This document shows, in pieces, positions 524 to 50,532 of a DNA stretch of 64,000 nucleotides; position 1 is the first letter of the stretch; each line of letters begins with the position of its first letter. A model generated the notes under the pieces. The model searched no databases. It was not told the origin of the DNA and saw nothing but the letters and a program-made list of their open reading frames with translations. The translations under genes and the position numbers were made by a program. Source of the DNA: Phoronis australis (taxonomy: Eukaryota; Animalia; Phoronida); contig NMRA01000065.1 in the NCBI GenBank assembly GCA_002633005.1, positions 545,985 through 609,984 of the forward strand, read 5' to 3'.

Positions 524-1138
524 TTAAAAATGTGAAATACCATGTCCTTTGAATTCAAACCCCATCTGCTTGTACAGTCGCTGTGAACCGTCGTAGTGGG
601 CAAAAGTCGATAGACGGATGCCCGAAAATCCCTTCCACTGGGCATAGCTGAGAGCTGCCGTCATTAAGTTTCGCGCAATTCCTCGCCTCCGAAACTGTTT
701 TGAAACGCCGAGACATGAAAGTGTTACCCATTTCGGCATATTCTTCCTTTCTTTCAAAACCACGTGGCCCACCACACTTTCCCTGCTCAGCGCTATCCAG
801 CATGTCGTGCTGTCGGGTTTTAACGCCTCCAGTAGATCGTTCTGCTTTCGGTATGTGTGACGTAAACTGAGAAGTAGAGCACGTGTAAAAACACAACATC
901 CAAACCCAAGCGTAACGAAAGTTCCACGTGTCCATCCAAGCTGAAGAACGGCGATTAGGAGGACTGAGATCACGTATAACCAAGTTACGGAGTGTTTCCA
1001 CGTGGCTCTGAGAAAGAGGTTCAAGTAAACTTCTTTCAGCTGATCTCTGTATAGCCTACATACAGCTTCCACGTCCTTTTGACTTTTCGAAGGACGAATC
1101 ACAATTTTGCAAAGGGAGCTCTTTTCACTTTTAGTCAT
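524..1138 (-). CDS. NAT8/camello-like GNAT N-acetyltransferase, single coding exon (204 aa to first stop; 225 aa if the stop at 524-526 is bypassed)
   Basis: N-terminal 'IVIRP...DVEAVCRLY', central hydrophobic segment (WLYVISVLLIAVL...), acetyl-CoA motif A 'LGVSKQFRRRGIARNLM' and 'IRLST...SQRLYKQMGF'. ATG at 1138 is preceded by an acceptor-like TTTTTAG|CC, so the ORF-track TTG start at 1183 is probably intronic. Confidence 0.8.
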   Translation of the reverse strand: MTKSEKSSLCKIVIRPSKSQKDVEAVCRLYRDQLKEVYLNLFLRATWKHSVTWLYVISVLLIAVLQLGWTRGTFVTLGFGCCVFTRALLLSLRHTYRKQNDLLEALKPDSTTCWIALSRESVVGHVVLKERKNMPKWVTLSCLGVSKQFRRRGIARNLMTAALSYAQWKGFSGIRLSTFAHYDGSQRLYKQMGFEFKGHGISHF

Positions 1139-2364
1139 GGCTAAAAACGAAATCAAATGTGTCAGTTCGACGGCAAAACGCAAGTGAGGCTTTACGTGTG
1201 CTAGGGGCTGTCATAAATGTGTTCAGAAATGATCAATGAACGTAGTACCCCATTCACAAACAAACATGCTTCCGGCCAACAATGTATTAAAAACACCACA
1301 CGATTTTTTATCCTACTGGTCGGAAAGCAGTCAGCTACGAGTCAGAACGAGCTTGCGGCTGGTCGTTATTAGCACCGAACAGTAGACCTAGACACTGAGT
1401 AGACCACATTACTGACTGCAGTACCAACATCAGTGCTTACTTCTGATGTCTTGGTCACATACCGAGAGATGCTCGCCCGATATCGCACAGTGAATTCTAC
1501 CCCAAAGAATTACATAATTCAGGACCATAGGAAGCGGGGGGAGGCGGGGTTGGGCACGGGCCCCCAAAACATTTTCAGACGTCTGGGTTAAACCGTAGCA
1601 ACCGACATAGGCATGGTGTGGGGGCAGTCCAGAAAAGAAAGACTGCGTAAAACGGATAAGAGAGAAAATTCAAGAGGACGTTTAACAAATCTGCATCAGT
1701 GCATGGTTTACCTTTTGAGGACAGTGGCCAGGACACTGTCGTTAGGGCCTTCAATTTGCATCACAGGTCGTCTAAACGCAAACATATATTTCGAAAAATC
1801 GAGAAGATTTGTAAAGCGAAGCTTTTGCGGAGCGTACTAATTTACTGGATGTTTAAATTAAATAAGTCAATTTTGCGAATGCAAATATATATTTTTCCAG
1901 AGGCCCCTCTCTCGCAAGGGATAACGGAGACAACTTTCGTTTTATTTTTTTCTCGAAACTGTATATCACTTGAGAAAAATTGATGACAGATAACATCAAT
2001 TGCTGCGCAATTCCTGATATTTGAAAATACATATACTTACACATATTTAGGAGGTCATTGATGACATTCAAGTGGCCACCTTTTTGTGTTTTTATTGACA
2101 AATTCTTACGGGGCCGCTCACGGAGAGGGCCCAATGTTGGAATCGATTACCTCTATTTCCTGTTGTTTGTGAAATCGTGCTTTCATGTTGAAGGAGGTCA
2201 CTCCCTGCCTCGTTTTGGGACCACACGACGGTGGAATGAATTGTCACTTTTTCCAAGCTCAATGACGTTTAGCCTTTCATCTTAAGGTGTCCCATTTCAG
2301 ACGGTGCCCTCTCTCAGTGGAGCAGTTCGGGGTAAATGTCCCTTTGTCCCTCTATATATACATG

Positions 2365-16571: not shown

Positions 16572-16770
16572 ATGAGCGACCGCGAGTCAGAGTCACTCGT
16601 CAACGTTTGTGAATCGGATAGGGTGCAGTCAGATAGACTCTTGGGGGACGATTATGGATCAACCCGCAACAGTCACGGTGAAGGAGACATCGCCCAGGGC
16701 TGTACCAAAGTCTACACCCGACGTTGGTATATACTGTTGGTGTTTTCTCTGATGGCGTTAGCACAGGGAG
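16572..16770 (+). CDS. SLC49A4: SLC49A4 exon 1 (MSDRESESLV...LMALAQG), N-terminal tail with dileucine-like motifs
   Basis: ATG at 16572; donor G|GTATGG; 199 nt; ESESLV and QSDRLL resemble lysosomal dileucine sorting signals. Confidence 0.9.
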
Positions 16771-19700
16771 GTATGGAAACAAAGTCAGTTGGTGTCATGC
16801 AGAGTAGACCCGGTGTGCAACCTATACGGGCCTGAACATTAACCTGGCCATCTAGATTGAAAATTGAGCTCTGCAGGCTAAACACGTGCTAGTATCCTCT
16901 GGCTGGCTATACACTGCCTGCGACATACACAGGCCATGTATAATTGCATAAGAAGCCAAGGCTAGCCTGATGCCTACCAGTAGGGCCCACTATAGAAATT
17001 TTTTTTGTATGTTTTTGTCTTGAGTTCCATGGTCGTAATTGGGTTGAAAACGATCGATATAAATGAGTCAAATTTCGATCTGTCCGGAGATTGAAATTAT
17101 TTTCTATCATGGCAATTAATTATAGGTTTGGAATATAGTTCGTGTTACTATGTTTTAGGAAAAAAGAAAATATTTCAATCTAAAAACCCAAGACATCGAA
17201 GCATTGCTCAGATAATTTCCTGCAAGTATCAAACTGACAATTCAATTGACATATTTCGTGTTGTTTGAGTGACTACATTGGTCAAACCAAACAGACCTGT
17301 GACAGCTGTAGATTTTGAACCCATGCCTCTCCAAAAAATGGCTCCTTATGACCTTATACCAATGCTTTAGGCAAGTACCTTAGGCAGCTCAGCCTTGTTA
17401 CCTTACTCACATTGATACTTGAAAATTTATTACAGCAATATGGAACACATGGGGTCCACTCACACGGTCCGCTGAAGTGGTTTTTGGCTGGCATGACTCG
17501 GACATTGCACTGTTGTCGAACTGGGGACCTATAACTTATGTAGTGTCTATGGCAGGCTTTTCATGGCTCATGGATGTTAAAGGCAAGGCTTCATATTTCA
17601 ACTAATCTTTAATTAACCAAAGTAATTTGGCTTCAACCTCTTTTGAAGTGTGTACTACCGATGAGCACTGGCCGAAGCTTAGAACAGACATTACGTCAGA
17701 CATTTTATTTGAGAAGACTTATGAACTTAAGGTCATAATTAAATAAAGTGATTAACTTGTACCAGTCTTCAATCTATCATCGCACCGAAAGCTATTTAGC
17801 GCTGGTCGGCAACAACCTGCACATATCCAATCACAACAACCTGCACACATCCAATCACAACAACCTGCACACATCCAATCACAACAGCCTGCACACATCC
17901 AATCACAACAACCTGCACACACCCAATCACAACAGCCTGCACACACCCAATCACAACAGCCTGCACACACCCAATCGCAACAGCCTGCACACACCCAATC
18001 GCAACAGCCTGCACACACCCAATCACAGGAAAAACGTGACACTGTGCATTTAAACAAATATCTACACAAAACTACATTTTAATTCAGTAAAAACACATTT
18101 ATTTATTAGTATATATTTTCTTATAGCATAATACATGTAGAATTTTGGTTTAAAACCAATTTGCCATCAATTGGGTCACGTTGCCATGTCTTTTTGCTAA
18201 AATTTAGAAAAAATATGTACATTCATAGCAAAACAACAGCATCAATTACATCTATTCACCAAATTTCAAATGTTCACGAGGCAATCTAAAAATGCTTTAG
18301 TTATGCATATGACTATATCTATCCATTTATTATTGGATATTAGTATTGTGAAAATCTAGTGCCATGTACAAGTGTACATAGTTTGAAAATATAATAACAG
18401 ATTGTTGACTATCATATTTGCCTGCATGAATTGAACAGGCTTCGAACATGAATTTTACTTTATCATTATTAGTATCACTATAATTAAAATCCTGATAATG
18501 ATAATATGATAGTAATAAATAATAATGGATCATGATAATGCTAATATTTTGGAACTATGAAATAATGGTAGTAGTAATAGTAATGTATACTGATAGTAAT
18601 ACAACTTATATGGCCAACAGTTTGCATGCAGACCAGACTTAAAATGTTTGTAGTAATGTAATTTATTGTGGTTGGCATGTTAGGATGCAATGTTGCAATG
18701 AGATTTTGCCAGAAAATGGCTTATACTAGTTGTGACCACTGAACATGATACTACATGCGTTAAATCTCTTTCCAGGTCTGAGAATATCGAGTATCATCTG
18801 TTGCGGCCTCGTATTTGTAGGAGCTGGGCTGAGGTGTATAACATTCGAGCAACCCGCTGCCAGTTGGTAAAAAGGATTTTCTTAACATGTTATAGTTCCT
18901 GTATTTAGTCCAATTTTTACCCTAATGGTAAAACAGCCAGTGACCAAGTCTCGTTTTTTTTTTTCAAAAATGCTTTCAGCGAGTACACGACACAGCTAAC
19001 ATATTCTCATCACACTATGATACTGAAGCTCCATGTTCTAATATTGGATGCTGAGAGTTATTTGCAGTAAACAGGTCTAGTTGTATCACCAGACGCACTG
19101 ATTGCACCTGTAGTCTTTGAAAGGGTACTTAACTCAACTGAACAGATCTTGGCCACCGTTGATCTTGTAATAGTTAGTGTACATGAATAGCTGCACAAGG
19201 ATGATAAAAACTGTGATCATCCTCAAAACTTTCTCACAAATGCCCTCAAGAAATCTGTCAAATTGCCAGTCTTCAAGGGTTTCTTAGGTTCAAAAATTAC
19301 ACATTTCTTTCAATTGTTAAGAAATTTTGTCACCTTGGGACGAAAATAAACTAAGTTTGGCAGTGTGTTTATAACGCCTGGTCCACATTGCATTGGAGTC
19401 GTTCATAGTCGCAGGTTAAACCAGTCATTGTGTAGTGAAATGCAAGTATAGTATATTACAGTGTGCCTGAGTTCATTTGCATTTGACGTGTGTACTTGGC
19501 CCGATGTGTGTGTACTTGGCCCGATGTTTCTTCTTCCTTTTGATTTCCTCGTCTGTTCATCATGTTCTCATGTACTCACTTGCTTGATTTACGCTTTAAT
19601 GGATTTATGGTTCTGTATCATGTAGTTAGTCAGATCTGGCTAAGCTACGTAATATCATGACAAAATTCAACGCACCGTGTTTTAGCCAATCAGAGGACAG

Positions 19701-22700
19701 TCGTATATTTGAACATTTTGGCATGATGTGGACAAGGCTTTGTTTGTGTTAACGTTCCGTTACTTCTTGTATAGGCTCATACATTCCGGGCAAATGCTTA
19801 ATGGATTCGCAGGCCCTGTAGTCATGGCGGCAGTACCACTCCTGTCTTCAAGCTGGTTTCCATCGTCCCAGCGCACTACGGCTACAGCACTTTCTGCCAT
19901 GGCAAGCAATGCGGGGGTAGCTGCTTCATTTGTAATTGGTACTTAATGTTTTCTCTTTGCATGTTATGCAGGTTGTGGGTATTGATTTTCTCATGGACGT
20001 GATATCTTCTGAGAAATTACCCTCCGCACTCAAAAAACCTTAATCAGGATTAAAAAAACATGTTCGAAAGGCAATAGATCCAATAGTTTACTTTCTCCAT
20101 TTTTGAAATTAAATATTAGGTTTTATGGGTTTCTTGGTGTTGTGGAGAAAATTAATTCGTGCATCAATTTCTCGGCATCTACTGACTGTCTTAGCTGGTT
20201 GTCTTGTGGTACGTCTTCATTACTGCTCCGCTGTTTCCGTGATAAAATATATACACGTACCCATAGACGTCTATGCACGTACCATTTACTTCGTAAAGCC
20301 AGCAATAGTGTTCGTTATTTTATTGAGGTGCTGTCAGATTTTTTCCGCATGCGATACTTTCAGACAGAAAAATCATGGCATTTTCCTTTAACATCGTGCA
20401 TCAGAAGCAATGCTAAGCAACTATTTAAATGCTTCTCATAACTGAGTTGCATTTTTTCTGCTTTCCTCTTCATAAATTGTCTCTTTGGTGAGACGTTTTT
20501 GAGAAGACTCACGAAATGTCCATTTCGATGACACGTGATTTGGCAGTTCTTAGTGAGCCGACTCGTTGAAGAGGTCGTCTCCCCACCTGGTAACTGATAC
20601 ATATACTGCATGGACAGGCTTTCAAATTTTTCATTATTGGTCATTTCAGGGACACAATTTATGCATTGCACTCCTGAGTAAAGTTTTATCAAGAATTGTG
20701 ACCTTAACAAATATACAGCGTTCAGATTTCTATTTTTATGACAAGGCAGATGTGATGTCTAGTCAGAAGGCAGATTAGCAGCTTAAGGGGTTTCACACAG
20801 TTTTGATATACTGTTGAATTGTTGATTAATTTTGATCCATTGTATTTTGGTCTTTGCCTACTGCAAATCTGCACTGAATTAGTTTTTCCATTATTGCTGC
20901 ATGAGAATTAGGCACCGCAGACAAAAGTGTGAAAATCACATGGGTTGCAAAAAATCCTCCTCTTAATTAAATTGATGATTGAAATCTTTTTGAAAACAAG
21001 ACTTTTATTGCGCAATACCAATTTTATGTTCTGTCGGTTTTAATTATCTGCCATGGTAAATTCAGGAAAAGTTACAGTGTGAAGATTGAAATGGATAGCA
21101 ATTTCTTGTTTTGTTTGGATTACTATCAAGATCACCTTCAATTTGTTCCTTCTCAATAATTGATGTATGTTTGACTACATCTTGAGAGGAATTCTTACTT
21201 TTTCAATGAGCTAATTCATACTGGTCACATATTAAATTGCTTCGGAGGACCTTTATGGTTTGCTGTCTTAACAATTTTGTCGTCTTGGTGTTTTCGTCAT
21301 CTGAATGTATGGCTACAAGGGCACTCATTACCATTGCTAATGACTTGGGCCAGTTATCGTCTTCAGCTATTGACTTCCATGTTGGAGCGCTCACTCAATT
21401 ATTTTAAGCTGTTCTTATGTGTGACTGAAGGATCCTAGGTAATCTGGGCAAGCCTCGAGCTGTTTGCACGAACCACTGAATCATCTGCTCAAACGGCACC
21501 ATAGACTTCATATAAAATTTATATTCATTATTGTATAAGTAAACAAATTTAACTGCATTCGATCAGCTAGCCCCATCTTTGCAGTATTGCTTTCTGTTGA
21601 CAGTGATTATGCATGTGCAAACATAGATGTACACTCTTGCTCAAATATTTTGTAAAATGTGCACCATGTCGAACCACTAATGTCGCACTGACATGTAGGA
21701 CATTTTGACGTATGCATCTGAAATGTTATGCTCACGCACTTAAGTTCCCTGCACGTGTTAAGGTTGCTACTATATGTCATGGCAATTTTGAGACACATTT
21801 GAAGAAACGCTCCTATTTGCTTATTACAGCAGTCATACGAACAAGTAAAGCTGTTGTAAACCACCTTGTCAAATACTAACTTTGATTAAGTGGGTTTGAC
21901 ACATTTTTAATTTGCCGTTGGATTTTCACATTTTGTATTTTGATCTTTGCTTACAACAAATCTAAAAATAATGTGGACATCTGCTGCAGATGCCTAAATA
22001 GAGACACCTCAACCAAAAAGTGTCAAAAGTTTGTCTTAAATGTATTATCTTGATTACCATGTGTTTTCTACAAATTAAAAAATGAGGCAGTAACTGTCCT
22101 AGTCTGTGCAGCATTTTAGTTTACACATTGTCACAAAAGATGATGATTGCCCCGCTGCATTTCACTAGATGGCAACTGTGTGATGTTGGTGGGATTGTGA
22201 AGCAAATTTTGTTGACGTAAATAAACTAAAATAGAAAGTTTCTTAGACTCAGGTTTCTCATCTTACCTCAAATTATGTCACATAATGTGTACACCTGTGT
22301 TTAGAATGACATCATTGTGAAACTTGATGTTACACGCCAATATTGAGTAACAAAAGCTTAACAATTTCTGTTTTAAATAGAAAACAATATTCAGATATTG
22401 TACAAATCAGTCAGTCGTAAAACGACTAATTTGTGGCACTGTACCAATTCCACAAAGGCTGGTGATACTTGTAATACTTTTCCCCAACTTTTCCTCGCTT
22501 ATACATGTATTAAAAGGGATTTCTGTGCTTGGGAACGACTGACAGTTTTCGAAGTGTGATACTTCATTCAATGATTTGACTTGACTTGTCTGACCATTTA
22601 TGCGCCAAGCACTGTCTGGCAACTGTGAGACCATGTGCAGTACGTTGGCATGATCCGGCCATTTTATGCACAATCATTGCCTTAAACAATGAAGAGATTT

Positions 22701-25700
22701 TGCGTCTTCCCAAACCTACATATAACTTCGAATATTAGTTGACGGCAAGTTTAGACTAATTTTAAAAGAGGCTAAAATCAAAAAGTAATTTTTTAACGGA
22801 AAGTGGGTTCGTAGTAGCTTTAATGTGAATAGTTTCTCATTTAATTGATTCTGAACAGTTTAGTAATGGGACACAAACCTGGTTTCCTCCGAATGTGTAT
22901 ACCGGCCCTTGTCTCGACATGAAAGCACCACCTTTAGCTTAGTGCTAGAAGTACACTTCTGCTCTACCTCTACTATTTGACGCACCTGCTGCCACCATTC
23001 GAAACTTTGTGGATATTTTCATAGCCTCAACTTTTCCCTCGCAGGTGTTTGTTCTGTGCACATGTGCAAACTTCAGTCATACGGCCAAGCACTATCCATG
23101 TTGAAAGTCACATGACTTGGCTATATGCCTCAAAGCCACACATACACTATGCGTTCACCACTGGAGCATCTGGGTGTTTTCTTAGCCTCAAATTATCCCT
23201 CACATACGTTTTATGTCTGCACATTTCCAAACTTCAGTCATAAAAGAAATGAGATAATCATCAGGTCAATCATGTTACTCTCAAAATGGAGAATGTCGTC
23301 TAATGTGTCTGTGCCTGATTTATTTATTTATTGTGATACTTAAAATGCGGGTGGTCTTTTTAGTGACAGCACTGCTTTCCAAGAGGGCCCTCAACAACAA
23401 AATATAAAACAATAATATAATACAATAAAGAAGTAAAACAATGTAATAAAGATACAATTAAAACAGGTTGAGAATTAAGATAATAAATAAATGACGAAGG
23501 ATGGTGAAAATTGGATTAAGAGAGGTAAAATAAATAAAGAGATGATACTAAATAGTTTGAGTATTTATAACAATGAAAAATGACATAATTAAGACAGGTA
23601 GGGTGTAAAAATGGTTAGGTAAATTACAGCCACTTTTTAATATTAAGTTTGAAAGTATTAATTCAATTGGGCCGTTTAATTTCTGGGCTATGAGCAGTAT
23701 AGATAAAAAAGTTCTTGCCGGTCTTGGTTTTAACTTTTTTAAAAGAAACATTACCAGCAATGGAAGAACTTGTAGAGTATATAGCTTGACTGCTACTGAA
23801 TTTTCAAACCAAACTTAAAGGAAGTACGTCAGGAGGCAAACTGTATAAGGATTAACAAAGATGTCTACTGCGACTTTTGAAACCAGCTAGGCTGAAGATA
23901 TTGGTTTTTATCCATCTCAAAACCTGATCTTTGGAAGTTGGCATTTGTGCAGATATCAAATACCTTGGGAAAATTTGGATCTACGAAAATTCTCGGATGC
24001 TCCCAGGGAAAATTTTAGGCTATCAAATTATCGAATGATATTACCACCTGTACCTTACAGAGTTATCTCCTTTCCAGGCTTATTCATGTCGGCCATATCT
24101 TGAACGGCCTTGCAGGACCCGTCTCTATGGCCGGTTGCCCACTGCTGTCAACCCTATGGTTCCCCCCCAATCAACGCACTACTGCTACTTCTGTGTCCGC
24201 CGTCTTTAACTATGTTGGCATGGCCTTATCCTTTATACTAGGTAACTAAAGCTTGCATTGCTTGTTGTTGGATCATCTGACAGCATTCTGCCACCATTTG
24301 TTTCTTCTCGGGCAATTCTCTTGAAATGAGCACAATCGTTTGTGTTCAGTGCATTGCCTTTTAATTTTGGAACCCAAATCTGCTCTTTGAGAATATTCTG
24401 TCATTTTGAGTCTCAATCTGTGCAAACGTATTTTACAATATGTTTACATGTTATGTGCAATATGAAATATAAACAATTATCAGTGCTGTAAAGTTTTGTC
24501 CATATATTCTTCTGAATGTTTCCTTATTGTCACGCAAACAAACCAGCAAAGGCAAGACCCGAATGTCTTTATGATCTGTTTATGTAACTGCGTAATTCCC
24601 CATCAGTCGTTTGTGTGGCAAACATTCTTGCCATTTTTAATAAGTGAAGTTTAACTCTATTTGAATTTTAGAGTGTTGGTTGATCTTCTTAGCCTACTAT
24701 CAAACAATTGAATACCTAAATGACAGCATTAATTAATGTTAGTTTTGTGGCTATCTTTTAGATTAGATAACTATAAGCAACGCTTTTGTTAACAGTGTTT
24801 CAATGAAAGTGTTAATGGTGTTTGAAGATTTTGCATTAGAAGCCGTTCCATTTTAGGCCCACTTATGGTGCGTGAACCACCAGACTCCTCCAATTCCACC
24901 AACGCATCGATTGTTCTTGTTGGTAAGTTTCTCAAAGCAACATCCTTTCCTCTGCTTAACTTCATGTCAGGCGAATGCAACGTGAATAGTCAATTGTTAT
25001 CTTGCGCTTTGTGTACGTGTGTAAAAGCGCAAGACTCGTGTGGGACATTTGGATACCTCGGGTTCTTGCCACAAACACGCTATTTATTTTTCATGCAGAA
25101 AATATTCTTTCCTGGATTTACTTTAGAATTCAGTGTCACTTTTTATCGGTCGCTGCTGACTTTATCAAGCTTCTGTCACACTTGTTGGCATGTGTCGATG
25201 TTGAGTCAAGTAACACCAAACTGTACAATACCCCGTTCCACTTGTGTGATAGGTTGACTGGACTGTCGGTCCATGGATGTTTGATAATTTCAAAAACACT
25301 GTCTCTTTTAGTGTACGCCATGTTGAAACCATCTTCCCCTTTGCTAGAATCGGGTCAAAAGTATGACCTAATTCCTCACAGTGGATTAACACAGTGGTGT
25401 CATCAACATGAACAAATTTTGTTTAATATAATATCCAAAATGAAATCTCAAAATCCCCGCTTCTATAGTTTTCTAAATTATCTCTTCATTCTCATTTCTT
25501 GCAACTTTCTGATTTTTTTGTGAAAATCAGTAAGTCTAAGTTAGTCCAGCGTACGTGAACATATTTGAAAAAAAAATTCCAAACATCATTTTAGAGAGCA
25601 GTGCATCAAACATTCTGGGATATTCATTGGATTCTGAACGTGTTCACTTATCTCTGAGATATGGTGTTCCCAAGTTGATATTCATTGGATTCTGAATGTG

Positions 25701-28700
25701 TTCACTTATCTCTGAGATATGATGTTCCCAAGTTGATATTCATTGGATTCTGAATGTGTTCACTTATCTCTGAGATATGATGTTCCCAAGTTGATATTCA
25801 TTGGATTGTGAATGTGTTCACTTATCTCTGAGATATGATGTTCCCAAGTTGATATTCATTGGATTCTGAATGTGTTCACTTATCTCTGAGATATGATGTT
25901 CCCAAGTTGATATTCATTGGATTCTGAATGTGTTCACTTATCTCTGAGATATGATGTTCCCAAGTTGAGTCCTACTTAACCTCAAAAGACATGTGATGTG
26001 AAAGTTTCCTGAACACTGTTCGTAGCAAGATCCTTCGTATCCAGTATAAATAAATACAGTATACAGATTGGAAAGACGTGGATAAAAACTGGCACAATAT
26101 CATCTGACCCAAAATTAAGGTCATTGAAAACTACTGCAACATTGTTCGTTCTTATGTAAAGCAAACGGGTTATGGGTGCTAAAAATCACTGTTCTACTGA
26201 ATCATCTGGTAAATTTGTGGAGCAGGATGAAAATGCGTTGGCTTTCAGTGCCATGGTAAAGAGTGTCACCTATGGGCCAAATTCTTTTTTCGTCAATTCT
26301 GCAATCAACAGTTCTTCTTCCACAAGGTTGCATACTACAACTTTCTATATTCATTTAGGGCTCTAATCTCTCTAATTAGTTTTTGATGTTTTCTGCTCTG
26401 TTCATGTACAAATTCAAGGCTAAGTCCCAATGAATGTATGTCTGATTATATTATAGTTTGCGCACATACTAGTTCGAGGTTGCTCCGATGACCCCTAGAT
26501 ATGAACTATGCATGTACAAATGCGACTACTTCTAGTTTGGATGGGAACTTCTAGCTTTAATGCTGGGGTTCTCAAAATGCAAGCCAGGATTAGTCAGTCA
26601 TCCGCGTAATTCGTAATGCAGGTGTACTCGACTACTGATCAATTGACACGTCATGAGTTCGTACTAAACTAATCGTAGAACTCAAACTCTGAATTATTTT
26701 CAATTCTAGAGTTCTAAGGTTAGTGTCCACATGTACAGAGCCATGTGAAAAACATTAATTTCAAATTGCGGGTATTGATAATTGATGCTTCACGTATGTG
26801 ACATCATGAATAACCGGAGTAACCTCTGTAGCGTTTTTTGTCGTTTTTTCATACAGTTGTACTTAGGTGCCACCATAGTACGTCACTTTACACAATAATT
26901 GTTTTTGCAAACTTCATCAGTCATCTGTTGCTGTCAAAAAAGTGTATAGCAGATACGGACACACAAGAAAGGCATGGGGGAGGGGGGGGGATATCAAGTG
27001 TCATTGCATTCCATGTGCTTTGGAGACATCCTCGCCTCTTTTAATGTATTTTTGTACATTTATACATCTTAACATTTTATTAACTGCTGCTTCTTGTTGA
27101 TTGCGTTTTACAGATTTGAACAAAAACGCATCATTAGAAGATATGAAGAACGATATTCGTATACTTATGTATGTTGGTAAGTAGGTGTCTATGGGCCACA
27201 TTGTGCCATACCTGAATATTTGCTATAAGTGTGGCTGCATTGTCAGAAGGGTCTAAAACGCCAGCTCTATCAACAGCATTATCAGGGTATACCAAAAACT
27301 TACCTGTCGATGTATTATTGAAAGTGAATTTTAACTTTATATGCGAGAATATACCAAACAAGTTTGTTTCATAAACAACCCAATGGTAGATGGATGCGTG
27401 TGAATATGTGTTCAATTTCATGTCTTTGGATGGCTATTATGCAATGCATTCTGGGTTCAATGCAGAATGACCTGAATAGCCTCTTGTCATAGCACACCGT
27501 TGATCAGTTGCTGACGAGGTCGCTTTTTACTACTGATAATTCATTGGGCAGGCAACGTCCATGTGATAGATAAAGATCAGTAGTGATACCTGTGTGTTGT
27601 CGCTTCATGTGTGTTATAAAACATACTCTGAGTACATGTTATTGCAATGGTAAACAGTGCAAAGTCAGAGAAAATTGATAAATGTAACATTTCATTGTAA
27701 TTGGTAATTGTTTTTGATGAGGCTGTACGCAGGAAAAGAAGGGATTGTTTTGTCTATATGCCCTCAACTGGTGGAGGTCACCACAAAATCGTCAGGTGCA
27801 GTAATTGGCAAGGGCGGGGAGGGCATTTTTTCAGTGAAGGGGACAAGCACAAACCTGAAATAAGTGTCCACTGGGGGACTTTTTGCAATGGACAAAGGCG
27901 CCTTTTTATCCCCCCATAGTCACACCAGTGCGCAGATGTAATTATCCTAGACTTCACAATTCTGTGTTATAGCCCGATATCCAACATGTAATGTTCAGGA
28001 TGCCAGTACAATTGGCTTTGTCTTTGTTGCTCGTTTCAGAGGCTGGTTATGCAGCGGTGTTGTTTTTAATCATGTTGATATATTTTCCCGCCAAACCACC
28101 AATGCCCCCTAGTGTATCAGCTCACAAGGAGAGGGTAAATTTCAAAGAAGGATTATTAGGCCTATTTAAGTAAGTCACTACACTTATTTTTTTCCTTCTC
28201 CAGTAGTGTTGACAGTGATTCCTGTGACTTTAATGGTTATTAAGATACGCCTTTGCTTTCTGTCATCAAACTTGACAAATATGGCATGCTCATCCTTTTT
28301 CATAATAGGTGCTATTTGAAACTAGCAGGTCTATTTTAAGTTATTGAAACCAGTGGTTTTAAAGATTTACAATGCATGAACACAGCAGAAAATCCTTATT
28401 TTTACAGGAAGCTGAACTTTTGGATAGTCGCTATTCCGTATGGTATTTCATCAGGGGTGTACGGTGGGTGGGGCAGTGTCCTAGGGGTCAATTTAACCCC
28501 CTTGAAGGAAATTGATCAGGTATTATGTCAATGCAGTTGTATAAAATCTTTGACGAGTTGTTGCCATAGGTGAAAGGAGAGATTTGGCTCAAATCAATTA
28601 TACAGCAATACTTTTTATCATGACTTGTTTTCAATAACAACATCACTTGCTAGGAAAATGCAGCCATCAAGTGAACAAGGCAAGGCTTAAAGTAACTGTG

Positions 28701-31700
28701 AACCTTATTTAACAGGTTGTACTTATGTGCAAATATCATGAACTCTGTTAGCTTTAACCAGTACAAAGTAAATATTTTCTGAAAGGTGAATAAATTTCCA
28801 AACATAATATATTACTCTTTAGTTATTTACTTGTCTTTATTTTTTCACAAGGTATCGAAATGATGGCTTAAGGGTTAAAACATGAACCGAAACTATGCTT
28901 TGTGTGCTGAGTGTAAAATGGCTTGGGTGCAGCTGGTTAAAAAACGTGCAGCTTTGTAGTCGTGTGAAGTGCTTGTCATTGCAGTTTGCAAACACTCTGC
29001 GCACCTGACGTGTATGATGAAACTGATGTGCGTGTACTTCCCTTGTAGACAGAGGCTGGCTGGATAGGGTTCTACTCAACTATTGCTGGATGTGCGGCTG
29101 GCTTCATTGTAGCAAGGTAGCGCAGTTGATTTATTCTTGTGACTTAATGCCCTAGATATTTTAACTGAAACATTATGAAATCTTAATGTGCGTTAAGGTG
29201 AGCATCGGCATTTAATAACGAAATATTTTAAAATTCGGGTTTTTACGGTAGCGACGGATTCCAGTTAAAGTCCACGACACTGCTGTTATGACATTTATTG
29301 CACATACAGAAGGCAGAAGTGACTTAGAATCAGTGAAGCCCAGGTAATACATTTTGTCAGCAAAGAAAATTTTGTTAGCCACAGGTCAGCAAAATGTCAG
29401 CTAGTTGGTGGGCGGTCACAATGGCTAGAGCATTTTCAAGGAAGTTCCAAGTTGTTAGACATGAACTTGAAGTGGAAACAATTCTGTGTTTGTTCCTATA
29501 AATTTCAGCTTCGATCCCCTAAACTTGGAACAGCAGACACCAAACACACAGTACAAATCCCGTGATCGCGCCCCTAATCTCCACACATTCATGGAGATAC
29601 CTGGAGACCAAGCTTCACACTCACGCAGGGACCAAGTTCTTGTTCCAGATCATGTGGCGAAACTGGAATGTAGAGGCGCGGTCATGAAATAGTTTTCACA
29701 TTGAAAGTTTTTAGAAATTTCGGAGTCGGGTGTTTTTCAAAACGTTATCTGGGCCAAAAACGGAACATGATAATAACAACTAGTGTATAAGGAACCGTTG
29801 ACAACTTCACCAGGCCTCTAGATGAGCTTGCTGTTGGTTATTGACCAATAGCATCACAAGCAGTAATGACACTTATATATGACTATTGCTAGTCTAGGAA
29901 CTGTGATACATGTAAGCTATGTGAAGACTTCACATTCACAAGCAATCATGTGACTTCCTTTTAACCAAATGCACACGTGCCTCTTCAGACATGCTTGGAT
30001 TATGCTTAAAGTGCTCAAAACCACCATTTATCTTGTTTAAGCAATCCAGTACATTGTCAGCATCATTAAACCTTCCTTTATAGCATTGCATGTCACAATC
30101 ATGAATTCAATATCCAAAAACTGAGAAAATAGATGAAAAGCGACTTCAATGTGCCCAGCGCCGCTGTGTCGTGTCCACCAACACACGAGTTTCTTGTACA
30201 AACCTACCATATCTGCAATTCGCCGATGCCCACGGGGAAAGTGAAAAGAGCCACAGCATGGTCAAGTACTAAGTTGTTATAACCTCCTCAAACACAACGC
30301 TTTGCCATTCCTTATATCATAAACCACATGAAAACGAGCAGCAATATTTGACGACTTTTCACACTAAACACAGTGGAGGATGACTAGGGCTGTGATTGGT
30401 AGTCCCCATTTTAGGTATCACAGTATTAATCAACCAGTAAATGCTCGTAACTTGACATCAGCTAATTGTCAGGTGGTGTTTTGGGTGTTCCAATTTGACA
30501 GTTAGTCAACTGGTGGGGTTGTTTTTGTGTTTTGATTATGGAATTGGTGATTTTAAACACTTTATTCGATAGACATTGGATTGAGATTTTTGCTTTTAAG
30601 GATGGCCCGGTAAACTGTATTTCAGTACTCTGCCATCGGCACATTTGAAAAAGTTCAGTTGCCTTTTGCAGTCATTATGAGGTCCTCGCCTTTTGGTTAA
30701 TACATACATTTTTTATATTTATCTCTGTGGAGGTTGTCTCGTCTGTTTGGCTATAATGCTTATGCAACTATCATTGGTTAATAGGTCATGATACATTTGT
30801 CCGAAATCTCTATGTCCAGGTTAAGTCAGATTTTTTTCATTTTGTTCTGGTTTTTGTTCTTAATAGTCTAACTTACAGCATAAATGCAGAAAATAGTCAA
30901 TGATTCCGTAGCCAATTTTATTAACATAGAGATAATAATCGAGTGAACTTGATACATGCATGTTATTGTATTGAACTATGCCAGCTCCAAATTACATCAA
31001 TACTTGGTGTTATCCAAATAAAACCAGATGTCTGCAACAATGTTGTCATTTGTGCCTTTAAATTGCATCATAACGACAAGCCGTGGTCGTCAGTTTATCA
31101 GGATTTGAGTTTTTAAGAATACTCTGTACTTGTCTACTTTCTTTCCAGGATTGCTGACTGTTTTGCTGGGCACATTAAGTTATTTCTCCTTGGTTTGACC
31201 TTGATGGGCATTGGATCCACAGTCTGGCTGACAATTGTGATAGGGTCGTACATACCATTTTCTACTGGTATGTTTGCCAATGAATGACAAGACAATGTAA
31301 GGGCAGTGTTGGATCTGTGGGGTCCACAGAATTCCCCCTCTCCGTAAATGACCACTGTGGCATATTTTTTCTGTGCAATAAAGAACACTGAAAGATTTAT
31401 ATCTTTTTGCTTGATTGGTCTCGACTGCAAACTGTGAATTATTGAAAGAGGTCGAAAAGGGCTTATGTCATCAGTGTTATTTGCTCTACTATTGCTCGCA
31501 GGGGAGATTATGAGGAATTAAAAAGTGTGGATGAAATCGTGGACGCGCCTCTGAAGTATTTTTAAAAGACATAAGTTATGGAATCGTTGATCATGGTTGT
31601 TTTTGTCCGTTATCGCTATGAGTTTTCAAAGTCACGTGATTGCTCAAGCAACAAATGAGCATCCCTTTTAAGAATATCTGACATCACACTAAGGTGCATT

Positions 31701-33474
31701 AGTGGAGCTAATTACAGAACGATAGCACAGTTTTAAATAGTTTAACAATTTGTCAATGTTTATGATATTGTTTTAATTTTCATTTTTCAGCTCAACTATA
31801 TGCCTCGTGCATAATAACGGGTTTTGTCCTGAACGCTACAATTCCATTGTTTTACGAGATGAGCTGCGAGACCAGTTTCCCCATTGCCGAAGGTGTCACT
31901 AGTGGTCTACTCACTTTCCTCAACAACGTGGTTGCTCTGATTTTCTTGTTAATCTTCATGATTCCATCACTACGTAAGGGTAAAATAGGATACCTTTTAA
32001 AGTGGCACTCGCTGAAACTTGGACTGTTTAACTGAAATTTATTCTACAAAAAGTTACTTGCATTGTCCAAAATGCAAAAAACATTATCAGGAAATTTGAA
32101 ATAGATGCAGTCGTACAACTTCATTAAACACATCGCCATTTGGTGGTGTGACATCACAAAAGGTAAATAAATGCATCGCAAGAGGGCGTGATTGTCAGGT
32201 AGTGTCTCTGTGCCTGAGATAATATATTTGAGACATGACAATGATTTATCACGAAAAACTAAGTGAGTAAGGATTGTGAAGATAAACGCTGCACTCGACT
32301 TTTTTCTACTTGAATCTTACAGCTTTCATCCAACATGACATTATACTATATGTTTATTTTGACAATATGAGAATTCAGTGTATTGAGAATAACACCCAAA
32401 CCACACAAAAAGATCTGAGTTTATTTTTAAACAAAGAGTAAAATAGCTGCAAATAATGATATTTTAGAATGTAATTCAACATATGAGCAAATCTCACGCT
32501 AGAAAATTGACTTTCTTGACACGACATTTCCTCATTTTGCGTGAAATTGTCGGACAAGTTTACTTTTAAAGCTGCACTAAGCACGTTTTCTGTAAACAGG
32601 TAAATTTTGATCTAGGTTGGTCACCATTATAAAACTGGGATCTGTAAGACTTAACTTGAAGAAAGAAATATGTTTTACGCTTCCACTTCAGGATTGTTGA
32701 AGAAAGTTTAGCCAAATAATTGTGAGCAGATCACATTCTAGAAATAATTCGTAGAAATCATATCAGCTTTGAACTAGAAGTTAGTGTACATTCTCACAAA
32801 CTTTGCGCCTTTGCTCTTTGTGAGATTTAATTATTTTTCAGAAATAGTTGTGCGGAGCATAAGACTAACTTTCTGTGTTAATTCTTACGTCACTTTTCAC
32901 GAAACAGACCCTGTACTTTGTTTTTTGAATTGATTTGGTGGTACAACATATTTAATTGCCCACATTTTCAAAAGAATGTACCCTAGATGAGCAAAAGGTA
33001 ACAAGTGACTGGTTGCACTCGTGGCTATCATTGTTCCTGCATGTGATTCGGTGCTGGTGTGTATGATTTTATGTTCGTATGTATGGTTTTTGTGGCTCCT
33101 GTGCATAATTTTTGTTCACATGCGTGACTTTTGGGTTCGTATGCAGGATTCATAAGTTCAGGTGGTTCGTGCGTAAGATGTGATGCTCGTGCGTATGATT
33201 CTATGGTACCTGTATACTGAAACTTTCACATGAATCCGATGGGCCATTTCTGAGAAATGATGTTCTGAAGTTAGTCTATTTGTTTTTTTTTCTAGGAAAC
33301 TACGTAAATTTTTAAACGGAATTCACTCTTCTTCTTTCAGCCACTATGTGGATGAACTGGTTCCTGGTGGGCTGTGTTATATTCTGTTTCATGGTGCTAC
33401 TTTTCCTCAAAGAAAACTATGGTAGACTACAAATTGACGTGGAAAAATTCACAGTCATGGTTCATGATCATTGA
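16572..33474 (+). CDS. SLC49A4: SLC49A4/DIRC2-like lysosomal MFS transporter (FLVCR/SLC49 family); 12 exons per transcript with alternative exon 4a/4b; 1476-nt CDS, 491 aa
   Basis: Manual splicing gives one open frame with consistent phases and family motifs: 'VYTRRWYILLVFS', 'WNTWGP', 'GW..SDIALL.NWGPI', 'GLR', 'WFP..QRTTAT', 'YFPAKPPMPPS.SA', 'AGWIGF', 'IPLFYE..CE..FPIAEG', 'WMNW...E.Y.RL.ID'. Confidence 0.93.
17436..17582 (+). CDS. SLC49A4: SLC49A4 exon 2 (AIWNTWGPL...SWLMDVKG), followed by a GC donor
   Basis: Acceptor TTACAG|; donor AAAG|GCAAGG; 147 nt, phase 1-1. Confidence 0.88.
17810..18025. repeat. 24-bp minisatellite, about 9 copies, in intron 2
   Basis: Unit CACAACA(A/G)CCTGCACACA(T/C)CCAAT with variants changing progressively along the array. 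Confidence 0.95.
18776..18866 (+). CDS. SLC49A4: SLC49A4 exon 3 (GLRISSIICCGLVFVGAGLRCITFEQPAASW)
   Basis: TTTCCAG| acceptor; TG|GTAAAA donor; 91 nt, phase 1-2. Confidence 0.9.
19775..19938 (+). CDS. SLC49A4: SLC49A4 alternative exon 4a (LIHSGQMLNGFAGPVVMAAVPLLSSSWFPSSQRTTATALSAMASNAGVAASFVI)
   Basis: TTGTATAG| acceptor; G|GTACTT donor; 164 nt, phase 2-1; open frame. Confidence 0.9.
21210..21372 (+). pseudogene. Decayed third copy of SLC49A4 exon 4 (pseudo-exon)
   Basis: LIHTGHILNCFGGPLWFAVLTILSS(W, 1-nt deletion)FSSSECMATRALITIANDLGQLSSSAI; 163 nt versus 164; colinear over all 54 codons; in-phase acceptor and GT donor lost. Confidence 0.8.
22497..22668 (+). pseudogene. Probable heavily decayed exon-4 copy
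   Basis: Polypyrimidine tract then G CTT ATA CAT GTA (LIHV---LKGIS); downstream TAC GTT GGC ATG (YVGM), as in exon 4b. Confidence 0.5.
22841..22948 (+). pseudogene. Probable internally deleted exon-4 copy
   Basis: In one frame LIDSEQFSNG..TWFPPN (cf. LIHSGQMLNG and LWFPPN); ends AGC TTA GTG CTA G (cf. SFIL-G). Confidence 0.5.
23318..23790 (-). mobile_element. Probable 5'-truncated LINE 3' end
   Basis: On the minus strand it ends GAGGGCCCTCTTGGAAAGCAG...CAATAAATAAATAAA, resembling a CR1/L2-type tail with (TAAA)n. Confidence 0.4.
24078..24241 (+). CDS. SLC49A4: SLC49A4 alternative exon 4b (LIHVGHILNGLAGPVSMAGCPLLSTLWFPPNQRTTATSVSAVFNYVGMALSFIL)
   Basis: CCTTTCCAG| acceptor; G|GTAACT donor; 164 nt, phase 2-1; 32/54 aa identical to 4a. 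Not present in the ORF track. Confidence 0.92.
24857..24922 (+). CDS. SLC49A4: SLC49A4 exon 5 (GPLMVREPPDSSNSTNASIVLV), loop with N-glycosylation sequons
   Basis: TTTTAG| acceptor; G|GTAAGT donor; 66 nt. Confidence 0.88.
25619..25968. repeat. 58-bp tandem repeat, 6 near-identical copies, in intron 5
   Basis: Unit GATATTCATTGGATTCTGAATGTGTTCACTTATCTCTGAGATATGATGTTCCCAAGTT at 25619, 25677, 25735, 25793, 25851 and 25909. Confidence 0.95.
27114..27176 (+). CDS. SLC49A4: SLC49A4 exon 6 (DLNKNASLEDMKNDIRILMYV)
   Basis: TTTTACAG| acceptor; G|GTAAGT donor; 63 nt; 'I..LMY.E' motif completed by exon 7. Confidence 0.85.
28040..28169 (+). CDS. SLC49A4: SLC49A4 exon 7 (EAGYAAVLFLIMLIYFPAKPPMPPSVSA...GLFK)
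   Basis: TTTCAG| acceptor; AA|GTAAGT donor; 130 nt. Confidence 0.92.
28408..28519 (+). CDS. SLC49A4: SLC49A4 exon 8 (KLNFWIVAIPYGISSGVYGGWGSVL...EIDQ)
   Basis: TTTTACAG| acceptor; CAG|GTATTA donor; 112 nt. Confidence 0.9.
29049..29116 (+). CDS. SLC49A4: SLC49A4 exon 9 (TEAGWIGFYSTIAGCAAGFIVAR)
   Basis: CCTTGTAG| acceptor; AG|GTAGCG donor; 68 nt. Confidence 0.9.
31149..31267 (+). CDS. SLC49A4: SLC49A4 exon 10 (IADCFAGHIKLFLL...YIPFST)
   Basis: CTTTCCAG| acceptor; G|GTATGT donor; 119 nt. Confidence 0.9.
31791..31973 (+). CDS. SLC49A4: SLC49A4 exon 11 (QLYASCII...IPLFYEMSCETSFPIAEGVTSG...IPSL)
   Basis: TTTTTCAG| acceptor; C|GTAAGG donor; 183 nt. Confidence 0.92.
33341..33474 (+). CDS. SLC49A4: SLC49A4 exon 12, coding part (TMWMNWFLVG...ENYGRLQIDVEKFTVMVHDH*)
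   Basis: CTTTCAG| acceptor; TGA at 33472-33474. Confidence 0.92.
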
Positions 33475-42973: not shown

Positions 42974-45223
42974 TTAAGAGGAAACGTTAGATACAAATCG
43001 ATTGTCTCTGAACTTCATCAAAACAGCAACTCCAACAGCTGCCAAAAAAGAGAGACCCAAACAAGTTAAGCATACGTACAGTCCTATGCGAATCTCGAAG
43101 CAGTCATTTAAAACTGATTTGACACTGGCAAATGGAGTTTCTTGCGTTTCTTGCACCGTCCCTTTGACATTGCCAGCTTCACATTGAATTTGTCCGCCAT
43201 TTTGTTTGCTAGCGCCGTTGGACAGAGAAAGGCGCAAAGATGCGACGGTCAACAACTGAGATTTGTCACGTGGTGGGTTAGCGATGGAGTTTCCCTGAGG
43301 TGATGATAACTTGACAGTTGGTGCGGGGTCCCCATGAGACGAACATGTAATTGTCAAGTCGTCACCTTCAACAAAAAAGGTAACATTTGGTTCTGAGGGA
43401 TTAGTGCAGGTAAGAGAAACGTTGAAGAAATCTCGATTTTTGTATTGCCGGGGTGTGCTACAAGCCGGTTTACTAATGTATCTAAAGCCTATGTTCCCAT
43501 GATTTGCAGACAACCATGATTGGAACTTAAATAAATCACAGTTGCAGTGGAAAGGATTATTGACGAGATCTAACGTCGAAATACTTGAGCCTGATTTCAT
43601 TGCATCTTCAAGAAGTGATTTTGGCAATTTCTGCAATTGGTTATGGTTGATTAAAAGAGTGTTAAGGATATTTTGTCGGGGCAAAAAATTCTCCCCTATC
43701 TCACGCAGCTGGTTGTGGTTCAGTTCAAGATGGACCAATTCCGTGAGATCTCTGAAACTGTCTTCTTCAATCTCCTCGATTTTGTTAAAAGCGATATACA
43801 GAAAACCGGGGGACGACAGTCCTTTGAACATCATCGCATCTATTCGACCAAGATTGTTGTGATCTATCAATAATTCTCTCAGTGAGCGTAGAAGTTCAAA
43901 TGTGCCTTCTTCAATGATTTCTAATCTGTTGTAATTCACCGTCAATGATCGGAGATTTGACAGTCCAACAAACATTTTTCTTGACAGTCGAGTAATATTA
44001 TTACGCTTAAAAGTAAGAAGTTCCATATCAGTATATGCCAGAAAATTGAAACAACCCTCTTCTATTTGCATAAAGTTATTGTTTGACAAATCGAGCCCAA
44101 CGGTAAATATGTTTTTCGTTATTTTAGCGGAAATAGTGTGGGTTGACTTTTTTAAATCTTTCAGCCTCACAACAAGTCTTGCAGCTACTTGGTTAACAAT
44201 TCCCTTGTCGCCGATTGAGTGGAAACTAATTGTCAAGGACTCCGCTGATATTCTTGGAGTTTGAGTTAATGACCAAATTTCCAGCGCTACCTCTTTTAGA
44301 CGTGTACAAGGGTCGAAGGCATCCTCTTCTATAACTGTTAATTCCGTTGCCATAACTGTTAAAATCTCAAGATCCCCAAACTTAAGAAATTGACGGCCGT
44401 TGAATGTGGTTATGTTGTTGCCTCTTAGATCAAGACGTAGGAGGTTATGAAGCGAAGAGAAGGCATCGAACTCAATAATACTAATCTTGTTGTTGCCCAA
44501 ATTGAGGACTCGCAGGGAACCTAACCCTTTAAGTGTCCAGGAGGTCAGGATTGTGAGCAGATTATAAGACAGTTCTAAAGTTGTTAATGACTTGGTGGAT
44601 GACCACTGACCATTAATGCGAGAAATCAAGTTGTTACCAAAATACAAGACGGTCAAGGAACCGAGTCCAGACAATAGTTGCTCTTCTATCGCGGTCAGGC
44701 GATTATACCTCAAGTTAAGTTCCGATAACAACGGCAAGTGGAGGAACGAAAACCCGTCTATGTGAGTAATGAGATTTTTACCAAGATCTAGGTGACGAAG
44801 ATTGTGAAGATCTTTAAAATTCTGAGACTCAATTCTTTGTATTTTGTTGTCTTGCAGGGAAAGATATTCTAGAGAACTTAAATTCCTGAAGGGTGATCCA
44901 ATCAACTGGGCGATTAGATTCCGGTCGAAATTCATTGATTCTACCTTTGTAAGTCCGTCCAGGATACCTTCATCCAGAGTCGTTATTTTGTTCGTTTGAA
45001 GCCTTAGAAATCGAATCAAGCTCGATCCATTAAAACGGAAAGCGTCTTCACCGATACTGCCAATTCCACAGTAACCAAAGTTAACGTCGTCCCCTGGAAG
45101 ACTTCGAACAACATCCTTGGTAAGAATGGAAATTTTCGCATCTAGTCCAAGTATACAGGTTCTGAATGGCACCCCCTGGTGAATTGTTACCAGAAACACC
45201 AGCAGCACGTTCAGTATAAGCAT
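42974..45223 (-). CDS. Intronless type I membrane protein: signal peptide, LRR array, LRRCT, Ig-like domain, TM helix, short tail (LIG-type LRR receptor), 749 aa
   Basis: Many 24-aa LxxLxLxxNxI repeats; LRRCT 'NPFHCNCDLFKFQSWL...PACSTP...LTC'; Ig 'EGDDLTITCSSHGDPAP...QCEAGN'; TM 'IGLYVCLTCLGLSFLAAVGVAVLM'; tail KFRDNRFVSNVSS. Confidence 0.92.
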   Translation of the reverse strand: MLILNVLLVFLVTIHQGVPFRTCILGLDAKISILTKDVVRSLPGDDVNFGYCGIGSIGEDAFRFNGSSLIRFLRLQTNKITTLDEGILDGLTKVESMNFDRNLIAQLIGSPFRNLSSLEYLSLQDNKIQRIESQNFKDLHNLRHLDLGKNLITHIDGFSFLHLPLLSELNLRYNRLTAIEEQLLSGLGSLTVLYFGNNLISRINGQWSSTKSLTTLELSYNLLTILTSWTLKGLGSLRVLNLGNNKISIIEFDAFSSLHNLLRLDLRGNNITTFNGRQFLKFGDLEILTVMATELTVIEEDAFDPCTRLKEVALEIWSLTQTPRISAESLTISFHSIGDKGIVNQVAARLVVRLKDLKKSTHTISAKITKNIFTVGLDLSNNNFMQIEEGCFNFLAYTDMELLTFKRNNITRLSRKMFVGLSNLRSLTVNYNRLEIIEEGTFELLRSLRELLIDHNNLGRIDAMMFKGLSSPGFLYIAFNKIEEIEEDSFRDLTELVHLELNHNQLREIGENFLPRQNILNTLLINHNQLQKLPKSLLEDAMKSGSSISTLDLVNNPFHCNCDLFKFQSWLSANHGNIGFRYISKPACSTPRQYKNRDFFNVSLTCTNPSEPNVTFFVEGDDLTITCSSHGDPAPTVKLSSPQGNSIANPPRDKSQLLTVASLRLSLSNGASKQNGGQIQCEAGNVKGTVQETQETPFASVKSVLNDCFEIRIGLYVCLTCLGLSFLAAVGVAVLMKFRDNRFVSNVSS

Positions 45224-48717: not shown

Positions 48718-50532
48718 GTCTGAAAAAGGCGGCTCTCCCCGAACTTTCCCGGGTCCCAACTCCTCACTTAAACGGCTAAGAAGGTCTTCCACCCATTATG
48801 TTCAACCCCAATAACAGAAAAATAGTTTTTTTACAAATTTTGGCTTTTTCTTAGCAACATGTAAACTAAAGGCTATTAAAGGCGAAGGCAACCTTTTCCA
48901 TGTCATTTTTAGCAAAAATAAGGTTCGTTGGTTATCCTAGACATATTTTTCACTTAATTACAGCTTTTCGTAATTTGATTAACTACTGGTGCTCTACTGC
49001 GGAAGTGACGTTTTGGGAGGCAAGAATTTCGCGCCAATTTCTGTTCATATAGTCTGACTGTGAGAGCTGTCCAGTCAGTCATTGCTCTACCTCGGTTGTG
49101 ATAAGTTCGGTCGTCGTTTGCTTTTGTTTACAAAGTTAGACAACATGCCACACTGTTGCTGCATAACGGGATGTACTCATTATCGTCTCACGCGCTTTGG
49201 GAATACCAGCTAGGCTTTGCATCGCTTTCCAAAGGATAACACACTTCGCCGAACTTGGCTCGCTCGTGTGAAGAACGCAGCGTTACCCGTCAACGCAACG
49301 TTCAAAGCAGTGGAGGGTTACCGAGTGTCTGTTCTGGCGCAGCCCGAGTCTTTTTCACCCCGAGTCTACTCCTACCGGCCACCCATTAATAAACAAATTC
49401 TCGTCTTTAACCCACTCATCCGGTTACAGGTGCAGTGCTCATAATGAAAGGGTTACATAACTAAGACGCGCCGTCATAGTGACTAATACCTTCAATCACA
49501 CTATTATTTTCTGACTCCTAATTTACCCCCAAATCCAAGTTTAGAGAAATTGCTTCATTGTGGTTACCAAAAGGCCAGTGCATACTCTCTTGATACACGT
49601 TAACATAAATTTAGAACCTACTAGAAGTGACAACGTGCCGATGTATGCTCACAAGTCGTTCTGTAAAAAATCTGTGACCCAATAACATAATTATGTGCTC
49701 AAACAAAGCCAAACTGAGCTCTTGCCTATAAATTTTGATTTTGATATTGGCATGACAACTTTTGGCTCGGTGCAGCAAAAAGTACATTTCGCTTGAATTT
49801 TGATTTTGCAAGTGATAATGTACTTTAAATGCTCTTCTGGGTCAATTAGCTACAGCCTACACGCATGGCTTCCTAATAACAATGAAACAACAAGGAGTAA
49901 AATCAGAACATCTTTTATCTTAGTAATGATTAATTTTTTTAAGTATTTCACGTCTCACATGTGTCATGATTATGAAACTACACTGAACTTGACAACTGTA
50001 GTTGTGTCATTCAGATACATGTACATGGATGTTACCTCAATGATTCATTTTCATCTACAGATCAAGACTTCCATCAAGTGTGAATCAGTTCAGGAGTTAA
50101 CTTTGCTTTTTAAGTTGTTTCAATTTTTATCACCATTAACGTTCAAGCTAAAAACGGCCAAACGAGTATCGTATAGTCTCAGAGCTCTATTTGACTCGGG
50201 CAGCGCCATGCGTAATAAGACAACTTAATTGGCAATATATTTTCATCCCAAAGTACAGTATTAATGTTCTACATATGTACAAATTGTTTACCCCGTTGAC
50301 TCTCATCTATTTGAACTAATATCACATCCGTAGTACGTCAATCCATTTCACTTGTTAATGTTACTAATCCATCAGTTTTCTATTGCAAGATTTAGCCTAA
50401 CTCAATGTAATTAAAGTAGTGGTGGTGGGAATTTTCATGCCTACCCTAGTGTTCATAGCTTTTGTCCTTACTTCATTACTTTTAGTCTATTCACACACTT
50501 GTATATACTTCTTTTTCTCTTGTTAGATAAGC

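Follow-up and report, generated by a model that had tools for sequence, protein, structure and literature searches.

An SLC49A4/DIRC2-like gene of Phoronis australis with two intact, probably mutually exclusive TM4-TM5 exons, and similar variants in mollusc isoforms

The window analyzed here, a stretch of 64,000 nt from the phoronid Phoronis australis (GenBank assembly GCA_002633005.1, contig NMRA01000065.1, positions 545,985 to 609,984 of the forward strand), harbors an SLC49A4/DIRC2-like gene in which the exon for the fourth and fifth transmembrane helices (TM4 and TM5) is present in two intact copies, here called A and B. Probably, this gene splices either A or B into its messages and yields two transporters of 491 residues, for which a difference in the TM5 wall of the pocket is predicted that may tune affinity, rate, or cargo range.

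Two intact exons and one decayed copy

The gene was rebuilt as 12 exons at positions 16572 to 33474 (+) (Table 1), with a GC donor following exon 2 (intron 2, 17582-17583) and a 63-nt exon 6. Both A and B revealed a length of 164 nt, AG/GT splice sites, and the same open frame, as already seen by a first-pass annotation made from the sequence alone; 32 of their 54 residues are identical and 22 differ. With the same flanking exons, the same length and phase, and intact splice sites, they correspond to tandem duplicates. In the 12-exon model, either exon alone resulted in a protein of 491 aa, skipping of both led to a stop at codon 152, and inclusion of both to a stop at codon 209, so that the frame break proposed earlier is real and exclusive use is forced by the frame.

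Every other core exon gave one family-profile match within the window and is thus single-copy, as the first-pass annotation had stated for all remaining exons. It had missed a third TM4-TM5 copy, C, located between A and B, in which neither the AG of the acceptor nor the GT of the donor remains and 1 nt is deleted. A fourth copy was found neither by DNA nor by protein profile in the window. Copy C is an internal control for the appearance of an unused copy, and as a dead third copy it shows turnover of the cassette; repeated gain and loss of copies in the exon cluster is probable, in place of whole-gene duplication.

Comparison of A with B revealed a saturated proportion of synonymous differences (pS 0.80) and a proportion of nonsynonymous differences (pN) of 0.27, with 21 of the 32 shared residues encoded by different codons. 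Scored against a family profile and ranked among 132 distinct other segments, which were chosen by a motif fixing three columns, A reached the 20th, B the 86th, and C the 1st percentile. In a neutral simulation with 0.25 changes per site, only about 19% of the copies stayed intact and family scores fell to near zero, while about 70% were intact at 0.05 changes per site. Because neutral drift leaves fewer intact copies and collapsed family scores, A and B have been under purifying selection for most of their history, in agreement with the long retention proposed before; a very recent silencing of one of them would be compatible with these values.

It is highly improbable that the two exons are artefacts of assembly or haplotypes, or that they were left behind by a whole gene that was duplicated in part. 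Though the window contains two N gaps and duplications of whole genes are frequent in the family, both gaps lie outside the gene, which has no Ns, and its other exons are single-copy. Furthermore, the 300 nt flanking A and B displayed no shared homology, and the synonymous sites are saturated, which therefore argues against an assembly artefact, as the first-pass annotation had expected.

Splice sites were scored with a matrix built from the 9-10 sites of this gene itself, which thereby scored themselves. Apart from those of C, the sites of exon A were the weakest in the gene (acceptor 6.6 compared with 8.5-14.7, donor 5.2 compared with 6.3-10.8), and those of exon B were within the constitutive range. 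One could thus suppose that only B is used now and that A was silenced recently and follows the path of C, with its decay still to come. This would agree with the weak splice sites, with the lower family score of A, with the share of simulated copies still intact after few neutral changes, and with the death of C at the same locus. However, the small and self-scored splice matrix limits the first of these points, the score of A matches those of annotated mollusc variants (2nd to 86th percentile), near-invariant residues of the family are kept in A, and its branch in the exon tree described below is short (0.22). Silencing of A therefore appears rather unlikely to us. According to the preferred reading, both exons would be spliced in P. 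australis with one of them included per message, B being the main form, as suggested by its strong splice sites and its consensus Asn245-Tyr246 (FLVCR numbering), and A, with weaker sites and Ser245, a minor or regulated one.

As to how the choice is made, steric exclusion is unlikely, since A and B have GT-AG sites throughout and lie 4.1 kb apart. Messages with none or both of the exons would be removed by nonsense-mediated decay, and this, together with the frame shift, would be sufficient to keep the output exclusive. Upstream of exon B, an inverted repeat was detected (23163-23235 with 23934-24003, and also 23012-23044 with 24000-24032; 73 nt, 71%), which ends 75 nt before the exon B acceptor. 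Its duplex was predicted at -66.9 kcal/mol compared with a random mean of -22 and a random minimum of -40.5 kcal/mol, and there was none like it elsewhere in the window. It could be the remnant of a small transposon or could affect the use of B. The introns of the gene also carry tandem repeats at 25640-25970 and 17790-18050 with units of about 58 nt and about 24 nt.

Fold of the protein and relatives with the same swap

The deduced protein shared about 50% identity with invertebrate proteins that their sources name SLC49A4 or DIRC2; human SLC49A4 lay outside the sets compared, and the invertebrate paralogues are many. Among the fetched proteins, the best BLAST match came from the annelid Owenia, and a FastTree tree calculated without the variable exon placed the phoronid protein, with weak support (0.90), next to one protein of Lingula and two others, outside the mollusc clade. 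Each of the exons A and B gave a weak match to Pfam MFS_1 (major facilitator superfamily, MFS), and exon A alone as a query retrieved two relatives but not the protein of P. australis itself. For the relative P0001, matches in the Protein Data Bank (PDB) were FLVCR1/2 chains only, and no solved structure of SLC49A4 was present in the PDB copy searched. An AlphaFold2 model of the limpet isoform P0055 (mean pLDDT, the predicted local distance difference test, of 85) had FLVCR2 and FLVCR1 as its best structural matches and displayed the segment as two helices, a kinked TM4 (160-190) and TM5 (193-221). Based on this model, on the alignment of P0001 with FLVCR1, and on the published FLVCR helices, the swapped segment is TM4 plus TM5, as the first-pass annotation had assigned it.

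Human SLC49A4/DIRC2 and FLVCR1/2 belong to the same family and fold as the phoronid gene. Human DIRC2 was described to export pyridoxine with H+ (PMC9719028), and the main text of that study mentions neither splicing nor isoforms. The phoronid protein may likewise reside in lysosomes and export small cationic amines such as pyridoxine; an N-terminal acidic dileucine signal for lysosomes appeared in its first 60 residues as a relaxed ExxxLV match only.

For the search for similar swaps, 30 protein clusters that had isoform names or several members were selected, and 27 of them were aligned; the other three comprised one single-member cluster and two without a pair from the same species. Five of the 27 contained RefSeq isoforms of the same gene that differed only in the TM4-TM5 segment, altogether from eight mollusc species. 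In all 12 isoform pairs compared, the differences were confined to residues 147-200 of the window protein, which are the limits of the exon. The five clusters revealed two variants in Patella vulgata, three in Crassostrea angulata (two seen in Magallana gigas), three in Gigantopelta aegis, three in Haliotis rubra (two in Haliotis asinina), and three in Haliotis rufescens (two in Haliotis cracherodii). Thus, in isoforms X1-X3 of the molluscan SLC49A4 homologues, which are automatic RefSeq annotations, the 54-residue segment that is duplicated in the window is replaced and the rest is identical, with two or three variants per gene. The swap was not seen in the other 22 aligned clusters, among them proteins of cnidarians, echinoderms, hemichordates, amphioxus, brachiopods, and further molluscs.

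Differences from the molluscs were also detected, as the window possesses a dead copy in addition and its copies group with no mollusc variant in a tree of the exon (42 rows, 54 columns), in which the bootstrap had not settled and most forks are open. In this tree, two oyster variants stood together and abalone variants paired across species. Monophyly of A and B was neither shown nor rejected by the approximately unbiased (AU) test (p-AU 0.26), and the same applied to the three oyster variants (p-AU 0.34). Judged from these sequences, a history of repeated exon duplication and loss seems likelier than a single origin. A metagenome scan resulted in four loci, one of which (L003) had one exon copy between the flanking exons with the same intron positions, while L001 and L002 were too short to judge. 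The fourth, L004, turned out to be a spurious match.

Further alternative segments were seen in relatives. Two RefSeq isoforms of Ptychodera flava (P0209/P0122) have the same length and differ in 17 residues, all of them at window residues 288-321 (exon 8, TM7), which is likely a second mutually exclusive exon in the family, located in the other pocket-lining half. SLC49A4 paralogues of Pecten (P0212/P0145), Mizuhopecten (P0221/P0167), and Ptychodera (P0210/P0124) displayed alternative homologous segments at the N-terminus (TM1-TM2) or the C-terminus (TM10-TM12), which may represent either alternative exons or tandem genes that were merged. In Patella caerulea, two adjacent gene models (P0058/P0008) carry one limpet exon variant each and differ elsewhere too, which suggests tandem copies of the whole gene. 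Tentatively, the TM4-TM5 exon might be a hot spot with independent duplications in several lineages of marine invertebrates, the changing cassette giving lysosomal exporters with different cargoes and other paralogues swapping TM1-2, TM7, or TM10-12 exons instead. If such a repertoire of exporters exists, it would provide a natural panel of chimeras with which the substrate choice of this little understood MFS carrier could be mapped.

Pocket residues of the variants and further features of the window

FLVCR positions were transferred via the alignment of P0001 with FLVCR1, those of the constant exons by eye, and the swapped exon corresponded to FLVCR positions 202-255. According to structural papers, TM4 and TM5 face the FLVCR cavity (PMC11168923), the site of FLVCR1 includes Gln214 and Asn245 (10.1101/2023.09.28.560019), and the pocket residues of FLVCR2, in the same numbering as FLVCR1, include 214, 218, 245, and 249 (10.1101/2023.10.05.561059). 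At these four positions, A and B have Gly214 and Met218 in common and differ in the other two, namely Ser245 and Val249 in A and Asn245 and Met249 in B, the latter showing the family consensus Asn245-Tyr246. The proposed Ser/Asn exchange at the TM5 Asn of FLVCR thus does fall on a pocket residue, and position 245 differs in 9 of 11 within-gene variant pairs, which are non-independent. The TM4 Gln/His exchange, taken before for the substrate-binding Gln, corresponds to FLVCR position 207 and not to Gln214, and altered proton coupling found little support, no differing residue being charged apart from this Gln/His.

Of the FLVCR choline pocket, W125 is kept in the window protein and N245 in B only, while Tyr153, Gln214, and Tyr349 align to Gly and Gln471 to Asn. 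Because the constant exons lack Tyr153, Tyr349, and Gln471 in the alignment, the logic of the FLVCR choline site seems to transfer poorly, and choline is not the expected cargo.

Several results weigh against the preferred reading. Pocket positions made up 8.1% of the differences in the 11 variant pairs compared with 8.3% in 6715 family-wide pairs, with a lower value of 3% in a hand-picked set of bivalve orthologs. Differences in mid-TM5 (0.36) exceeded the family background (0.30), but bivalve orthologs reached 0.36 as well. Position 245 varies freely in the family, with Asn in 51 of the 132 segments, and uptake by FLVCR1 was affected only to a lesser degree by the exchange N245A (10.1101/2023.09.28.560019). 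Regarding the choice of exon, a coarse scan for docking/selector RNA pairing of the Dscam/MRP type gave -19.9 and -14.7 kcal/mol for the best shared duplexes, no better than the -15.9 to -21.1 kcal/mol of controls. By these sequence comparisons, pocket divergence among the variants is similar in extent to that among paralogues. With two differing pocket residues (245 and 249) but no enrichment of pocket differences over the family background, we therefore only infer the change in substrate properties proposed by the first-pass annotation.

Alternatively, both exons might be used and their proteins carry the same cargo much alike, the copies being redundant or differently regulated in level, stability, or tissue, with turnover of copies. 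The missing enrichment, the identical TM4 pocket positions 214 and 218, the tolerance of many residues at position 245, and the loss of copy C all point in this direction. Against it, two non-identical copies were kept up to synonymous saturation, and two or three divergent copies were retained repeatedly in several lineages, with abalone variants common to species, to which pure redundancy is hard to fit. Overall, we regard transport of the same cargo by both forms as unlikely and prefer two transporters with differently tuned pockets.

Apart from the SLC49A4/DIRC2-like gene, the window contains four further features (Table 1). The frames adjoining an N gap had no Pfam match; by eye they resemble a DIRS-type element.

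Table 1. Exons of the SLC49A4/DIRC2-like gene and other features of the window
Feature	Position	Strand	Description
Exon 1	16572..16770	+	Start codon, N-terminal tail with relaxed ExxxLV dileucine-like motif, TM1
Exon 2	17436..17582	+	End of TM1, TM2; GC donor follows
Exon 3	18776..18866	+	TM3; constitutive upstream exon, phase 2 end
Exon 4A	19775..19938	+	Alternative exon, TM4-TM5; Ser at FLVCR position 245, Val at 249; splice sites weaker than those of constant exons
Copy 4C	21210..21372	+	Decayed copy; acceptor and donor lost, 1-nt deletion, conserved residues lost
Exon 4B	24078..24241	+	Alternative exon, TM4-TM5; family-consensus Asn245-Tyr246, Met at 249; splice sites in constitutive range
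Exon 5	24857..24922	+	Constitutive downstream exon, loop after TM5
Exon 6	27114..27176	+	Small exon, start of TM6
Exon 7	28040..28169	+	
Exon 8	28408..28519	+	TM7
Exon 9	29049..29116	+	
Exon 10	31149..31267	+	
Exon 11	31791..31973	+	TM10-TM11
Exon 12	33341..33474	+	TM12 and stop
GNAT acetyltransferase frame	524-1210	-	228 aa, hydrophobic N-terminal part
Leucine-rich-repeat and immunoglobulin (Ig) membrane protein	42974-45247	-	Single frame, 757 aa
LINE (long interspersed nuclear element) retrotransposon	50527-54059	+	Endonuclease and reverse transcriptase, two overlapping frames
Frames adjoining N gap	55762-56969	-	DIRS-like by eye

Comparison with known mutually exclusive exons

In the open-access literature, judged by listings and the beginnings of abstracts, no published description of an SLC49A4 exon swap was found. 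Since the mechanism as such is of an established type and RefSeq implicitly contains the mollusc isoforms, the finding is less surprising. For SLC49A4, one substrate has been reported, and isoform pairs differing only in two helices of the N-domain that likely line the pocket are ready-made experiments on what determines its cargo.

In humans, substitutions of tandem-duplicated exons include the solute carriers SLC12A1, SLC25A3, SLC39A14, and SLC7A2 (PMC8373072), and the supplement of that study has no entry for SLC49, DIRC2, FLVCR, or MFSD, its SLCO, SV2, and SLC8 rows not being covered by the search. As in SLC49A4, internal homologous exons are swapped in these four carriers. To our knowledge, none of them has the MFS fold.

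Among invertebrates, exons 15a and 15b of NALCN, described for molluscs, annelids, and other invertebrates, are duplicated exons that swap pore-defining residues (PMC3557258). NALCN is an ion channel with a conserved two-state switch and a monophyletic exon 15b, while SLC49A4 displays variable copy numbers and a poorly resolved history. Exons 6a and 6e of coq-2 are mutually exclusive internal exons found in invertebrates, including annelids and molluscs, that bring about a substrate switch, and the mrp-1 transporter has mutually exclusive exons of the same length with an independent origin per lineage (both PMC7434440). These two have other folds, namely those of a prenyltransferase and an ABC transporter, and the switch is proven for coq-2, whereas it is predicted in SLC49A4. 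With the present case, an MFS carrier joins the few enzymes, channels, and transporters of invertebrates in which splicing swaps the active core.

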